Shown: positions 1 through 5,113 of the stretch, one piece after another
Layout: the number at the start of each line of letters is the position of its first letter
Position numbering within the stretch: the first letter of the stretch is position 1
DNA from: Candidatus Binatia bacterium
GTDB taxonomy: Bacteria > Desulfobacterota > Binatia > Bin18
DNA length: 64,000 bases
Direction: 5' to 3'
Assembly (NCBI GenBank): GCA_963664395.2
Contig: OY761159.2
Coordinates: 832,001 to 896,000, forward strand
Program-made: the position numbers and the translations under genes
The notes under the pieces: model-generated
The model's database searches: none
What the model was told of the DNA's origin: nothing
Seen by the model: only the letters and a program-made list of their open reading frames with translations

Positions 1-240
1 GCTCCGCGCTTGGCTGCGGCGCCGCGGCTGCCACGGTCATCCCTAACAACCCGCCCCGCAAGCGCAAACATCCCTTTGACAAAATCGCTTATCGGACCCG
101 GAATGTCATCGAACGCACTTTCTGCCGCCTTAAGGACTGGCGCCGCGTCGCCACCCGCTACGATAAACTCGCCCACAACTACCTTGCCTCTGTCGCGCTC
201 GCCGCCCTCGTCATCTATTGGTTATGAGTCCTGACCCTAG
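1..240 (+). mobile_element. 3' end of IS5-family element (transposase C-terminus, terminal IR, CTAG target); truncated by the window edge
   Basis: Encodes ...YRTRNVIERTFCRLKDWRRVATRYDKLA...IYWL* (stop 225-227). Ends TTATGAGTCCTGACCC-TAG. Reverse complement of 19977-20216. Confidence 0.92.
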
Positions 241-331
241 CGCATTGACCGCCTTTCGCTAGCTCCCCTGGTGTTACAGCAAACCGCCACTGACCGTATT
301 CCCGCTGTCAGCCACGGGCAAGATAATGGTA

Positions 332-1186
332 CTACCACGACAAACACCGCCGTACGGCACGGGGAATTTCCTCTAGCTCGCGTACCCGAACGACGGTTCC
401 CCGACCGACTTGCGCCATGCGGGTGCACAGCGCTGGATCACCGCCAGGAAGCTCAATAACGTGTAAACAAGTGAATTGTCGGGCAAGGGAGAGAGGGTCG
501 GGGCCAGTGTTCAGCCAGCCATCAGTGACCAGAATACCAATGTGGTTATGGACCTGTGTTCTGGTAAGCTCTTCCAGTCCTGTTTCTAGCCCGCAGGCCA
601 CATCAGTACATCCTTCTGATTGCATGCCCAAGATTTCCTGGATGATTTCCTCTTGAACCATCCGCGTACCAACTGCCCGGATCACATACCCCTCATCCGA
701 AAAAGCAACCGCCCCCCATTCATCTTCAGGCAGAAGATTCAGCAACAATGTGGCTGTCACCAGCGCTGCCGATACGGCTTTGGAGCCACGCATTGAGCGG
801 CTCTTGTCCAGCATCACCATATAAGCCCGACGGCGAAGGGTGCGTTCCTTGACTACCAGATCTGCATAATTTGCCGGTCCTGAGTGGTGTAAGGCGAATG
901 GCGAGGAGAGCATCCGATCCAAAGAGGCCTCAAGGTCAAGTTCATCGGAGTGAAATCGATACTGAGCAGATTCAAACTTCCCATCGCGGCGGAACCTCCT
1001 GGGGACTGACACACGCGCCATTTTTAAAAGGAGGCGGACTATACGGTCCAGGTGTTGCTCCCGGGTCTCTGCATCGAGATTATCCCAGGTCAGGGTGAAC
1101 AGTTTTTCATAGGAGTGATGATGTGAAAGACGATCGAGGACAAGACGATGCCGGCCCATGATCTGCGCAACGCGGGTGGGGGCCAC
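332..1186 (-). CDS. von Willebrand factor A domain protein; frame is open upstream to 1447, probably expressed as a frameshift fusion with the MoxR ATPase
   Basis: MIDAS motif DKSRS...GCTD...VTDG. The GTG at 1186 has no clear RBS. Confidence 0.88.
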   Translation of the reverse strand: MAPTRVAQIMGRHRLVLDRLSHHHSYEKLFTLTWDNLDAETREQHLDRIVRLLLKMARVSVPRRFRRDGKFESAQYRFHSDELDLEASLDRMLSSPFALHHSGPANYADLVVKERTLRRRAYMVMLDKSRSMRGSKAVSAALVTATLLLNLLPEDEWGAVAFSDEGYVIRAVGTRMVQEEIIQEILGMQSEGCTDVACGLETGLEELTRTQVHNHIGILVTDGWLNTGPDPLSLARQFTCLHVIELPGGDPALCTRMAQVGRGTVVRVRELEEIPRAVRRCLSW

Positions 1187-1401
1187 CTCAGCCAGGGAAA
1201 CGACGTCATCAAGCGCACCCTGGCTGAGCAGCTCGTCCGCCTCACGATCAAGCGGGGCATCGAGGTAGTGGTGGTGATCCTCGGGAGTGCCCGGATGATG
1301 GGCAAGCAGCCTGTGCTCGCTCTCGCTCAGAATGCGTCGGGGGGCCGGCCGCTGGGCTACCCCCTCCTCGACTTCATCTTCCAGATGTAACGGTCCCGGA
1401 G

Positions 1402-2337
1402 CTATGAGGCCGATTGAGCTGTAGGCTTTTTTTTTAACTCGTTGGGGTCACCTAATTCCCAAAACTCACCATCCGGAGTATGCCATTCTTCGGCCAGACT
1501 CTGCCATATCTCCTGAATAATTTCCTCTGGCGTGCGGCTTGTGGTTTCATTCAGCCAAATTTTGTCCCGGAGCGCCATTAATGCAGAAGAGAAAACCAGG
1601 TGGGTGCGTTCCGTCCCTGCTCCGTCCTGAGAGTCGAGCAGCTGGCAGGCAATAAGAACCAGATCAATGGCTCCTCGAACCGACGCACCCAGCCGAATAT
1701 CCTTGTGGGCTCTTGTGCGTCGGGTCATTTCCATTGCCGTCGCCACCAGGCCCAGGTTACCCTGGTCTGTGTGCCGTTTGACAATATCGACCTCTTCGTC
1801 TCGGTTCTGATAGTCCATCCGGATCGAGCAGAAACGATCTCTGAGCGCCCGGCTCACCCTGGCTGTACCCGCATCGTCATAGGGGTTTAACGCGGCAACC
1901 ACACGGAACTCGGGTTTCGCCACCACACAGCCAAGATAGGGGAGGGTCAGCTCACGCTCTGAGGTGGCAGTAATAAAGGCATTGGTGGTATCGTCCGGCA
2001 GCCGGTTAAATTCCTCCACATACAGAATCGCCCCTTCTTGCATGGCCTGCGTCAGAGGACCATACTCAAAATGTTCCGGCTTATATCCTTTTGACAGCAC
2101 TTGGGCAGGGTCGAAGTGACCGAGCAGCTTTGTCGAGGTCAAATCGCTATTCCCCGTCACCTGGATAAAAGGGATACCCATTTCCTGCACGACGCTTTTG
2201 AGGATGGTCGATTTTGAGGTACCAGGGGGGCCCTCAAGCATCACATGCCGCCCGCCTAACAAAGCCGCCACAATCATCCGCGTTTCGTGACGCCGGCCAA
2301 CGAAGTGATCTACCACACGAGAGTAAAGTTCTTGCAT
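1402..2337 (-). CDS. MoxR-family AAA+ ATPase
   Basis: Walker A-like GPPGTSKS, Walker B YVEEFNR, sensor ALNP, arginine finger ALRDRF, C-terminal GASVRGA. Confidence 0.92.
   Translation of the reverse strand: MQELYSRVVDHFVGRRHETRMIVAALLGGRHVMLEGPPGTSKSTILKSVVQEMGIPFIQVTGNSDLTSTKLLGHFDPAQVLSKGYKPEHFEYGPLTQAMQEGAILYVEEFNRLPDDTTNAFITATSERELTLPYLGCVVAKPEFRVVAALNPYDDAGTARVSRALRDRFCSIRMDYQNRDEEVDIVKRHTDQGNLGLVATAMEMTRRTRAHKDIRLGASVRGAIDLVLIACQLLDSQDGAGTERTHLVFSSALMALRDKIWLNETTSRTPEEIIQEIWQSLAEEWHTPDGEFWELGDPNELKKKPTAQSAS
1426..1453 (-). other. Candidate -1 programmed frameshift / slippage signal
   Basis: Minus strand AGGTGA-ccccaacgag-TTA AAA AAA AAG: A9 run (1435-1427) with in-frame A AAA AAG heptamer and an SD-like AGGTGA ~12-15 nt upstream. 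Confidence 0.65.
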
Positions 2338-2462
2338 AACTCAGTCCAAATCACTGTGACACGCGTTCGGCCACTGGCGGTCAGTTGTTGGAGTCTTACT
2401 CCTCACTCATTGTTACGCGAGTTTGAAGCGAGTCCCCAGCTGCTGACCGCTGACCGCCTGCC

Positions 2463-3503
2463 TTATGCATTCGCCGGAGCACTATCACCGCGCGTGGGCA
2501 CGCCGACTAAGCGCCTGTACTCATCTCCGGTCGCGACCTCACGGCCCATGAGCTCGGCAATCGACTTGAACATGCGGAAATGATCGGCATTTGATTGGAT
2601 GAGGGCGTCCTGGTGAGGGTGTCGCCAGACAGTGTCTTCCATGCCAACCCGGACGTGAAGGCCTAAGATCATGGCTTGGATAGCCAGGTAGCTCGACGCC
2701 CGGCCAGCAGCACAGACAACAATTTCCGAGTCGCGGTCAATGTCATAGATCAGGTCAGTCAGGTGCATGATACCCCTGACCATCTGTCTGGGATTGTTCA
2801 TGGGACTGCCCCCGGGCAGCGTTGGGAGAATGATCCAAAAGTAAGGCTTTTCCAGTAAGCCGGTCTTAATCAAATAACGGTCCGCATTGTCCACATCGCC
2901 ATCAGAATATACTGCTATCTGCGGCTTGACGCCGAGCTCCTGACACAGCCGAGTTTTTTCTATGATGACATGTGGGGGTTTAGCAAAGAGGGTGTCTCCA
3001 CAGAAGGAAGCGGTTGTGTTAATGGGAGTGACCTCCAGCAAGCGGTCGCTCAGCACCGAGACCATGTTATCCCACTCTCCGTCCAGAAACGGCACCATGC
3101 AACCGTCATACACCGGGTCTGGAAACTCTTTGCGAACAGGGTCAATCACGCGATGGAAGAGTTCTGAGTCGAGGACGTTATAGCCTTCCTTATCACGCAC
3201 ATGCACATGGACGGTGGTGGCCCCGGCCTCAGCGCACTCCCGGGCCGAAGTAAGGATCTCATCCGGAGTGACGGGTAAGTTGGGGTTGTTTCGCTTGCTA
3301 TAAAAGGCGCCGTTAACCGTCTGTGAGATGACGACTTTATCCGGAATTTTCCACTTGGGCTGAACCTCAATATCCCCGTACTTAGAGGTAAAGGGATCAA
3401 CGACTTCTGGGAGCCCGTAGGGGTTCCAGATGGCTTTAAATTCTCCCTTCTTTTTCCACTCCTCAATATATTCCCAGTTGACTTTATCTTTCCTTTTGGC
3501 CAT
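2463..3503 (-). CDS. Beta-keto acid cleavage enzyme (BKACE / 3-keto-5-aminohexanoate cleavage family)
   Basis: NPNLPVTPDEI, GATTVHVHVR (HxH metal motif), HVRVGMED; strong RBS GGAGAGG. Confidence 0.9.
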   Translation of the reverse strand: MAKRKDKVNWEYIEEWKKKGEFKAIWNPYGLPEVVDPFTSKYGDIEVQPKWKIPDKVVISQTVNGAFYSKRNNPNLPVTPDEILTSARECAEAGATTVHVHVRDKEGYNVLDSELFHRVIDPVRKEFPDPVYDGCMVPFLDGEWDNMVSVLSDRLLEVTPINTTASFCGDTLFAKPPHVIIEKTRLCQELGVKPQIAVYSDGDVDNADRYLIKTGLLEKPYFWIILPTLPGGSPMNNPRQMVRGIMHLTDLIYDIDRDSEIVVCAAGRASSYLAIQAMILGLHVRVGMEDTVWRHPHQDALIQSNADHFRMFKSIAELMGREVATGDEYRRLVGVPTRGDSAPANA

Positions 3504-3613
3504 AGTTCACCTCTCCTTAGTTATGCTTGTCCCATTTCGCCCTCTCTCCCTCTAGTTCTGTTCCATTATACCTACTGTGTCAAGAGTTAAATGGTATCGT
3601 ATCAGCTCGTTGC

Positions 3614-4418
3614 CTAGGGCGTGTTCACACTATATCGGTTATAGTTGGGGGATGGAGCTTACCCAACAGCAGTATGAGCACCTCAAGGACTTGCTCCCGC
3701 GTCAGCGCGGGAACGTCAAGGGAGACAATCGGCGAGTGTTGGCAGCGATTCTGTACGTGGTAGAGCAGGGCGGTAAGTGGCGGGGCCTGCCGGAGCAGGG
3801 CGGTAAGTGGCATACGATCTATACGCGCATGAATCGCTGGGCGAAGAAGGGCGTGCTGGACCGGATAGTCGTGGCTTTACAGCAGCCGCAGCTCATCTGC
3901 GTGCGGGTCGAAGTGGTCTCGCTGGATAGTCCCGTCGTGCCAGTGCATCCGGACGGGCCGGGCGCGCGAAAAAAACCGGGCCGCAAGCCATCGGGAAGTC
4001 TCGCGGCGGCTGGACGACCAAGATTCATCTGGTTGCCGCGGATGCTGGCACCGCCGTGAGCTTTTCGTTGTCGCCGGGCCAAGCTGGCGATGCGCCTGAG
4101 GGCCGAAAGTTGCTGGCCGAGACTCCGTTGGAGGCCGAGTACGTGGTGATGGACCGGGCCTATGAGGGCGAGGCGACCCGGCAATGCGTGCGCGATTTAG
4201 GGGCGACTCCGGTCGTGCCGCCGAAGAGCAATCGCAGGGTACCGTGGCCGTACGACCGAGCAAAGTATAAGAAACGCAATGAAGTGGAGCGGCTCTTTCG
4301 CAGACTGAAGGGCTTCCGCCGCATCTTTTCTCGGTTCGACAAGCTCGATGTGGTGTTCGCCTTCTTCATCCACTTCGCACTCATCATTGAGGCGCTCAGA
4401 AGTGTGAACACGCCCTAG
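3614..4418 (+). mobile_element. IS5-family insertion sequence; two-ORF transposase (3652-4059 and downstream ORF to 4418) joined at an A8 slippery site near 3969-3976
   Basis: Perfect terminal IRs GGGCGTGTTCACACT / AGTGTGAACACGCCC flanked by CTAG. Motifs WRGLP..W.TIYTR..RW, VMDRAY, YKKRNEVERLFRRLK. Confidence 0.93.
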
Positions 4419-4597
4419 ATGTTCGGCCCCGAGCATCCAGTCTTTGTGGGAAGTATTGACACGATCGACGGGGTTGGCGCTGGACGGGCCATAGGTTATA
4501 GTTTTTATTTCTCGATGCATCTGGGCCGCTATATAACTTGCGCCAGTAGGGCTAAAGCGTAGCCAACGGCATGAGTCTCACCGATAAGGAGGACGTC

Positions 4598-5113
4598 ATG
4601 AAGCACGTAGCTCAGTTTGTCGTAGTTGTGTTGCTCTGTTTCACTTTTTCTTTCGATATTGAAGCTCAACAGCAGAAGGTAGAACCAAGTGGATCTCATA
4701 CCGTCTCTGGGGCACTCACTGGGCCGGAGGGCCCCATCGCAGACGCAGAAGTCTTTTTCACGTTTTACAAGGATGCGGAATGCGTGAGATTTGCAAAAAA
4801 TGAAATGCAACTGAATTCAACTGAAAAAGGACAATACGCAGAATGTGCCCAGGATCTGTCGCCTCTCAAATCGGACGAAGAAGGTCGGTTTACGTTCTCC
4901 CCAAACAAGACTGGTTGGTATCGGTTTATGATCAGATGGGGGCAAAGCTCCCTGCCGGAATATAAGGACCCATTCATGGGTGACTTTTTTATAGAACACT
5001 ATCTGTATCAGAACAAATATATGGTGATGTCGATAAGCGACTTTTTTATCTTTTCGGGGGACAAAGATCTTATTTGGGACTTCAACTGGCAGACCCAGAA
5101 ACCTCAGCGATGA
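4598..5113 (+). CDS. Secreted hypothetical protein, possibly carboxypeptidase-regulatory/transthyretin-like beta fold
   Basis: RBS AGGAGG before ATG 4598; signal peptide; VSGALTGPEGPIADAEV...SDEEGRFTF pattern. Confidence 0.6.
   Translation: MKHVAQFVVVVLLCFTFSFDIEAQQQKVEPSGSHTVSGALTGPEGPIADAEVFFTFYKDAECVRFAKNEMQLNSTEKGQYAECAQDLSPLKSDEEGRFTFSPNKTGWYRFMIRWGQSSLPEYKDPFMGDFFIEHYLYQNKYMVMSISDFFIFSGDKDLIWDFNWQTQKPQR

Follow-up and report, generated by a model that had tools for sequence, protein, structure and literature searches.

A conserved poly-A run between a MoxR-type ATPase and an out-of-frame vWA domain in a Binatia genome, a probable site of programmed slippage

The closest described counterpart of the locus reported here is the frameshifted chlD gene. 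According to passages in three papers (PMC3711429, PMC5009743, PMC9227772) it carries an AAA+ domain, a linker and a vWA domain in one gene with a -1 break at a poly-A run that ends the AAA+ part, in-frame fused orthologues of it exist, and its short product is the AAA+ subunit and its long product the AAA+-vWA subunit, two subunits being given by frameshifting from one gene (part of PMC9227772). A locus of the same plan lies on the minus strand at positions 332 to 2337 of a 64,000-nucleotide stretch of a Candidatus Binatia genome (GenBank assembly GCA_963664395.2, contig OY761159.2, positions 832,001 to 896,000), the whole of which is called the window below and to which all positions refer. 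Here a MoxR-type AAA+ ATPase gene is followed, past a run of nine A's, by a linker and a vWA domain in the -1 frame. We consider it probable (roughly 0.8) that programmed slippage on this run, by RNA polymerase, by the ribosome or by both, would yield both an ATPase and an ATPase-vWA fusion. The AAA domain in the window differs from that of chlD in being AAA_5/GvpN/CbbQ/NorQ-like and not ChlI-like, and the conserved neighbour in the related loci examined is a gene of the BKACE (beta-keto acid cleavage enzyme) family and not one for chelatase H or CobN.

Two dnaX genes offer further comparisons. That of Thermus thermophilus has, as described in parts of PMC5009743 and PMC3711429, a run of nine nucleotides, a mixed mRNA, two products with a common N-terminus and nearby stops in the other frames. 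Its long product is read in the zero frame and the slip gives the short one, whereas here eight of nine loci need the slip for the long product and only one (L022) is Thermus-like. The E. coli dnaX has the same A_AAA_AAG heptamer in the same phase (in a passage of PMC3711429); in contrast, the loci described here have no conserved Shine-Dalgarno (SD) sequence or hairpin, tRNA-Lys(CUU) is present, and the shift would give the longer product instead of the shorter one.

With regard to the proteins, NorQ/NorD and CbbQ/CbbO also combine a vWA adaptor with an AAA+ hexamer of the MoxR CGN type, and CbbQ and NorQ rank with the nearest solved structures to the AAA part, but in these systems ATPase and adaptor are separate genes, whereas here a single recoded gene is predicted to tether the adaptor covalently. 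The AAA modules of Midasin/Rea1 are the best solved-structure match by sequence (3e-33) and are AAA_5 modules joined to a C-terminal MIDAS domain; this protein differs in being eukaryotic, with six AAA modules in one chain of roughly 4,900 residues and no recoding. The MoxR-vWA family is an AAA+ lineage, with a partner, distinct from chlD and having the same architecture, kind of site and logic. How the ratio of ATPase to adaptor is set in MoxR and vWA systems is poorly understood. If the proposal is right, the built-in ratio control from one gene that has been proposed for chlD would exist in a second, separate AAA+ lineage, and a well-supported case of recoding would be added from an uncultured phylum. 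The literature searched held no description of recoding in a MoxR-vWA/BKACE case, the supplementary cluster lists of PMC3711429 and PMC9227772, which may include the family, lying outside the scope of the search.

Anatomy of the locus and conservation of its run

The features of the locus, all on the minus strand, are the following.

1402..2337, minus strand: AAA+ open reading frame (ORF) of the MoxR class (Pfam AAA_5), with ATG at 2337 and 311 amino acids by standard decoding
2206-2232, minus strand: Walker A motif GPPGTSKST, within the AAA+ ORF
1448..1453, minus strand: SD-like AGGTGA, 12 nucleotides ahead of the run and 15 ahead of A_AAA_AAG; probably not a conserved stimulator
1448..1450, minus strand: TGA closing the vWA (-1) frame, four codons ahead of the A9 run
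1427..1435, minus strand: A9 run, the candidate slippery site, which holds A_AAA_AAA and with G1426 gives A_AAA_AAG in 0-frame phase at 1432-1426
1402..1404, minus strand: 0-frame TAG, ending the short product seven codons past KKK
332..1426, minus strand: linker and vWA in the -1 frame, 364 codons past KKK plus the stop
1247..1300, minus strand: His-rich linker motif HHPGTPEDHHHYLDAPLD, residues 50-67 of the 371-codon frame
794..808, minus strand: MIDAS motif DxSxS (D214, S216, S218) of the vWA domain, in columns invariant across a 39-sequence alignment
2463..3503, minus strand: BKACE-family gene, 125 nucleotides upstream on the same strand (Pfam BKACE, 175.6 bits)

The AAA+ ORF ends with GAG TTA AAA AAA AAG CCT ... 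TAG, the stop lying nine codons past the A9 run. The -1 frame is open for 371 codons from stop to stop and ends at the stop 334-332, and its first ATG, GTG or TTG is the GTG at 1186 (an ORF of 284 amino acids), with none in the 80 codons before. Since a TGA stands in this frame at 1450-1448, entry into the vWA frame must fall between 1447 and 1427, and within that interval, where a change of frame is needed for the linker to be translated, the poly-A run is the sole feature. The fusion is predicted to have 304 + 364 = 668 amino acids. A reading of the locus made from the letters alone (the sequence-only reading) had given these landmarks, and re-reading the minus strand bore out every one of them (ATG 2337, the A9 run, TAG, TGA, GTG 1186 and the stop at 332); its linker translation also proved correct, both by translation of the -1 frame and by alignment to a fused homologue. 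That it had recognized a MoxR ATPase and a vWA protein agrees with Pfam, which assigns AAA_5 (88.5 bits, cut-off 22) and AAA_3 to the ATPase ORF and VWA_2, VWA and VWA_CoxE to the downstream one.

We propose that the locus is a single gene for a MoxR-type AAA+ ATPase, a linker and a vWA/MIDAS adaptor, deliberately held out of frame at the poly-A run. Standard decoding would stop seven codons past the run and give the 311-residue ATPase, whereas in a fraction of expression events a one-base slip on the run would give the 668-residue ATPase-linker-vWA fusion. Such a slip would come either from an extra A inserted by RNA polymerase or from a -1 move of the ribosome on A_AAA_AAA/G. The resulting mixture would form AAA+ hexamers with a vWA arm on only some of their subunits, resembling the solved NorQ6-NorD1. 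The analysis establishes the anatomy, its conservation, the purifying selection on all parts and the selection on the run; the two protein products, their ratio, the level of slippage and the client are inferred.

Conservation was followed in nine distinct loci for which DNA was at hand: that of the window genome (G000), three from the same genus, namely G006 (L003/L026), G021 (L004/L027) and G015 (L005), three from further genomes of the class, namely G282 (L028/L031), G052 (L029/L032) and G395 (L030), and two metagenome lineages, L022 with L023 and L025. The assemblies of the related loci stem from different collections and studies. By tblastn the vWA part stands in the -1 frame in seven of the nine, in +1 in G015 and in frame in L022/L023. 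The junction reads A9G in five loci (G000, G006, L025, G052 and G395), A8G in G015 and A10G in the in-frame L022/L023, while in G021 and G282 a run of A10 has arisen by a G-to-A substitution that leaves the total length unchanged. A poly-A run of 8-10 is therefore kept in all nine, and the run together with a frame break in eight of them, which answers the suggestion of the sequence-only reading that both be looked for in homologous loci. In-frame fused orthologues, which it had also proposed to seek, do exist (P0001, and L022 with A10). A search of the family of G395 for further loci returned only the two already known, in 2 of 165 genomes.

In the DNA alignment of the nine loci eight A columns are invariant, while the upstream flank is variable and carries indels. 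Outside the run, Lys is encoded by 0 AAA against 12 AAG codons in L022 (68% GC) and by 1 AAA against 9 AAG in L029 (71% GC); despite this use of AAG both loci have AAA AAA AAA at the junction. Because AAA codons are kept in GC-rich loci that otherwise use AAG, and because the run forms an invariant island in a variable stretch, it is selected as nucleotides. The short-product stop seven codons past KKK is built from an ATA, CTA or TTA codon of the vWA frame plus the G of the next codon, as with the TAG at 1404-1402, and the codon that forms it is the only CTA among the 80 Leu codons of L022 and the only TTA among the 67 of L025. L030 has CTG at that position, but an earlier TGA. A stop in the short-product frame soon after the run is thus kept by rare codons.

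All parts of the gene are under purifying selection. Pairwise Nei-Gojobori ratios of nonsynonymous to synonymous substitution rates (dN/dS) lay between 0.06 and 0.27 in the AAA part, between 0.05 and 0.21 in the linker (80 codons) and between 0.11 and 0.26 in the remainder, except in the pair formed by the window and G006, where the 0.42 comes from only 5 + 4 changes. The ratio was also low between split loci with a dS of 0.6-1.0 or saturated (for example 0.05 and 0.11 for L025-L028); therefore the linker and the vWA part have long been translated in lineages that carry the break. In the nine-locus alignment the variation in the first codons past the run falls on third positions of the vWA frame, and that frame holds no further stops or indels in any of the nine.

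Among homologous proteins, in-frame AAA-vWA fusions are common (432 proteins of 546-2000 amino acids at E <= 0.001), and the best 120 of these 432 are mostly 580-680 amino acids long and nearly all combine AAA_5 with vWA families of Pfam. The closest, P0001 (643 amino acids, 69% identity), is of the in-frame, A10 type of L022; it matches the AAA ORF of the window up to KKK and the -1 frame from KKK onward, the linker HHPGTPEDHHHYLDAPLD included. The junction could be anchored in 47 of the 120 listed fusions, with KKK in 6, KK in 12 and neither in 29, and on this count the run appears to be absent from most in-frame fusions. AAA-only homologues number 142 (171-545 amino acids, E <= 1e-90), and 102 of the best 120 of them have KK in their last 25 residues, typically as KKK followed by 0-9 residues. 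A sub-clade of AAA-only proteins (P0310-P0322, P0327-P0330 and P0358), 65-70% identical to the window ATPase, ends about 20 residues earlier in NLGL or NLGF with no Lys run.

The run itself was checked in the assembly and in public data. The window genome (5.04 Mb in 14 contigs) has nine A/T runs of length 9 and none longer. It holds 204 homopolymers of at least 8, of which 52 lie inside intact long ORFs and five, the A9 site among them, join two ORFs of at least 150 amino acids in different frames of one strand. With 52 such runs intact against five at junctions, the assembly is therefore not full of homopolymer breaks, and the position of the A9 site at an ORF junction is more than chance. 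The other four junction homopolymers (G9, A8, A8 and G8) lie outside the window, at C1:2432751-2432760, C1:4737802-4737810, C1:3031886-3031974 and C1:524818-524867 of the same genome; two of them join large ORFs (480+392 and 396+885 amino acids) and could be sites of recoding, of phase variation or of error.

Logan contigs, which are contigs and not reads, of four public runs were aligned over 1100-1800. X1 is possibly the source run of the assembly, X10 belongs to another study and is labelled 'DNA?', and X8 and X17 are RNA libraries. Contigs of X1 and X10 (DNA) and of X8 (RNA) cross the run without a gap and thus have A9, whereas in a contig of X17, an RNA library made from the sample of X10, the run is longer by two bases (A11, at a depth of 5.65); the X17 contigs end at 1449-1470, about one k-mer from the run. 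A9 is thus reproducible in DNA, and the X17 contigs give only a hint of length heterogeneity in RNA. The A10 state that the sequence-only reading had named as evidence against recoding did not appear in these DNA contigs.

Slippage and the explanations that compete with it

Given that recoding takes place, we lean slightly to transcriptional slippage as its main contributor. Runs of nine or more A or T are presented as efficient RNA-polymerase slippage sites in a passage of PMC5009743, two independent G-to-A changes have lengthened the run, and one RNA contig has A11. Moreover, the in-frame A10 relative would give its short form by the same slippage, at the conserved stop. A conserved direction of shift is taken as a sign of ribosomal frameshifting in part of PMC3711429; the mostly conserved -1 direction seen here is also expected if insertion of a single A is the commonest transcript error. 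Poly-A cassettes termed 'magnesium chelatase' gave 10, 40 and 63% of -1 frameshifting in E. coli for 7, 9 and 11 A's, as reported in a section of Antonov 2013 (PMC3711429).

The narrower proposal that slippage is purely ribosomal, a dnaX-type -1 shift on A_AAA_AAG stimulated by the upstream AGGTGA, is a sub-case of the same reading, and we regard it as possible but doubtful. It was favoured by the sequence-only reading, and part of it stood, namely that the heptamer is in the correct phase; the direction, -1 in seven of the eight out-of-frame loci, also speaks for it in the light of the passage just cited. The proposed stimulator was not supported: AGGTGA is shared only by a group of four close genomes, in which it lies in coding sequence as well; the remaining five loci (L022, L025, L028, L029 and L030) lack it, so that it is a clade-specific motif. 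The window genome has genes for both tRNA-Lys(UUU) and tRNA-Lys(CUU), and with the latter present the tendency to shift on A_AAA_AAG should be lower than it is in E. coli. The change of AAG to AAA in two lineages lengthens the run, a run of 9-10 A's is long enough for slippage by RNA polymerase (from a passage of PMC5009743), and the A11 contig comes from RNA. No significant hairpin was found downstream either, which agrees with the sequence-only reading in that it had seen none that convinced; an RNAalifold consensus of the nine loci (-6.6 kcal/mol) pairs across the run and was too weak to be accepted as a stimulator. The Rfam scan of window positions 1-4600 (E <= 1) gave no match, and the scan for promoters and terminators gave nothing above shuffles.

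That the locus could instead be a phase-variable contingency locus or a tolerated frameshift, in which replication slippage alters the length of the run in DNA and so turns the fusion on or off, any translation through the break in the off state being accidental and not selected, seems to us unlikely. Run length does vary among relatives (8, 9 and 10), a close pair differs (L022 in frame and L029 split, at a dS of 0.3-0.4), the operon is accessory and flanked by insertion sequences (IS), and poly-A is also slippery for DNA polymerase, as one passage of PMC3711429 states. Against this, the off state would be present in eight of nine loci and in 32 of 33 close protein clusters, which is difficult to reconcile with purifying selection that has acted strongly on the vWA part across saturated dS; the two G-to-A changes lengthen the run yet keep the -1 relation, and rare codons maintain the stop soon after the run. 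That only A9 is found in the two DNA contigs weighs little here, since contigs hide minor variants.

Public annotations treat such loci as two genes, and one might suppose that the vWA gene is started at a non-canonical codon or by reinitiation past the TAG; ATC, ATA and CTG codons are indeed present near the TAG in the -1 frame. We consider this very improbable. The vWA frame of the window lacks ATG, GTG and TTG for 80 codons, and the near-cognate candidates are not conserved. The close vWA proteins at E <= 1e-60 number 33, made up of the fused P0001 and 32 that are annotated as genes on their own, 208-384 amino acids long; the N-termini of the stand-alone proteins are scattered over many linker positions, called starts thus differing among relatives, and five of the vWA proteins reach upstream in the -1 frame and have KKK at the homologous place. 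Conservation of the vWA frame, with substitutions of the synonymous type, starts directly past the run, and the in-frame fused orthologues align across the junction with KKK in the same place. The sequence-only reading had named two genes with their own starts and an unconserved linker as an outcome that would speak against recoding; what was found is that called starts scatter and that the linker is conserved and under purifying selection. As a matter of annotation, dozens of public entries split such loci into two genes, with vWA starts that are arbitrary and proteins that are truncated.

Still less probable is a decaying pseudogene that was inherited broken. The indels in the BKACE genes of G015 and G395, the A8 of G015 and the patchy distribution of the operon would suit it, but dN/dS is 0.05-0.27 on all three parts, deep pairs of split loci included (the 0.42 of the window-G006 pair coming from few changes), and the vWA frame is free of extra stops and indels in nine of nine loci. 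Last, a miscounted homopolymer in the assembly of a gene that is simply fused, with a true A10, as in the in-frame L022 and in keeping with homopolymers being the usual residual error and with the lack of any A/T run beyond 9 in this genome, is already largely refuted, given that A9 recurs in contigs of two DNA runs, one of them independent, and of an RNA run, that the same -1 relation is seen in seven loci from different collections and assemblies, and that gene callers have produced split proteins across many sources.

Several points weigh against programmed slippage as we propose it. The A8 run of G015 is in the wrong frame for a -1 event, and the BKACE genes of two loci carry indels outside homopolymers, namely a 2-nucleotide insertion with local scrambling in G015 (L005:~130-150) and a 1-nucleotide insertion in G395 (L030:~160-185); some loci may thus be decaying or poorly assembled, and the A8 of G015 is weak evidence. 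The nine loci represent about four or five deep lineages, and their counts overstate independence. No conserved stimulatory element was found, the folds of the 97 nucleotides past the run in six loci being no better than shuffles (z -0.8 to +0.7). The operon is patchy: at E <= 1e-40 a search of 401 genomes of the class recovered it in 7, G000 being one of them, and 3 of the 27 further genomes of the genus have it; IS5-family elements lie on both sides of it in the window. Among the 120 listed AAA-only homologues, 18 lack the KK tail and end in NLGL, NLGF and similar tails; the extent of the site beyond the nine loci is suggested by the KK-tailed proteins, where separate genes with Lys-rich tails may also occur. 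With regard to expression, the deepest RNA contig (X8) is plain A9, and the A11 of X17 is not the productive +1 form and could be an artefact of reverse transcription, PCR or assembly, RNA libraries being also able to hold DNA. The read evidence consists of contigs, from which minor variants are dropped.

The adaptor, its possible client and the neighbouring genes

The best NCBIfam match of the AAA part was GvpN, an identity that was rejected because the score of 86.6 bits lies below the cut-off of 266.8. A chlD/bchD identity was likewise rejected, P0001 scoring 62.4 bits against 779.45 (TIGR02442) and 28.5 against 499.55 (TIGR02031), and the AAA part of the window scored 23.6 and 27 with the NCBIfam chelatase D models. 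Its nearest solved chains are the midasin AAA modules, CbbQ (3.7e-15), NorQ (3.4e-14) and CobS.

A structure of the linker and vWA part, modelled from an alignment of 39 rows, has a predicted local distance difference test score (pLDDT) of 82.6 and shows a helical bundle and a vWA fold, with about 36 residues of low confidence. The Foldseek matches of this model are VWA domains of a general kind; among the top ones NorD in NorQD aligns over the greatest length (243-267 columns), and the MIDAS domains of Rea1/MDN1 came lower, at ranks 44 and 46. In the 39 sequences DxSxS, which we take to be the MIDAS motif of the vWA domain, is invariant together with the T and D of MIDAS. The four NorQD entries contain 24 NorQ chains, six in each, with NorD as chain G, which by analogy points to about one adaptor per hexamer of this type. 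Because these entries suggest six ATPase subunits to one adaptor, the role of recoding may be to dose the tethered adaptor.

The His-rich linker motif is invariant in another alignment of homologues and mostly kept in the consensus of 39 sequences. The model suggests that its His-rich segment, residues 50-61, is disordered (pLDDT below 50). The occurrence of a conserved HH..DHHH motif in a linker predicted to be disordered, encoded next to a gene of the BKACE family, hints at a role in metal handling.

The BKACE gene is the immediate upstream neighbour in all related loci long enough to include it, and its product shows 76-97% identity (tblastn), above that of the ATPase or the vWA parts. The BKACE enzymes are a metal-dependent family. 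More speculatively, we suggest that the BKACE-family enzyme is the likely client of the MoxR-vWA protein, and as a conserved neighbour it offers a testable one for such a chaperone; a predicted complex of BKACE with the linker and vWA part scored 0.00, which is neutral either way. From the RNA run X8, a single contig of 2372 nucleotides extends from 1165 upstream through the linker and the AAA ORF and, by its length, into BKACE; this is compatible with co-transcription and is no proof of one transcript, and the difference in depth between the X8 contigs on either side of 1165 is not interpretable.

We are tempted to suggest, as a tentative picture that we would hold with low confidence, that a recoding-dependent 'mini-midasin' is widespread in Binatia and several other bacterial lineages. 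In it the MoxR-type ATPase gene would dose its own tethered MIDAS arm to about one vWA adaptor, with its His-rich linker, per hexamer, the complex would mature or reactivate the metal-dependent BKACE enzyme encoded upstream, and the efficiency of slippage, tuned by the length of the run (A9 or A10), would set the stoichiometry.

IS copies lie on either side of the operon in the window, in line with its uneven occurrence across the genus. On one side, window positions 3-227 (plus strand) hold the C-terminal end of an IS5-family DDE transposase. On the other, at 3577-4418 (plus strand), another IS5-family transposase, with DUF4096 ahead of DDE_Tnp_1, is broken into two ORFs that overlap. The conserved transposase sequence carries on in the -1 frame at an A7 run (3969-3975, CGA AAA AAA C), the poly-A recoding site usual for this IS group, which places a second slippery site within 3 kb of the A9 run. 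A tblastn search of plasmids with the vWA frame gave no match.

Two tRNA calls elsewhere in the genome may be recorded. The tRNA-Pyl(CUA) reported by aragorn at C1:1053530-1053622 is a probable false positive, with a poor cloverleaf and no PylS (TIGR02367) found in the genome. A tRNA-SeC was called at C1:2573201-2573296.

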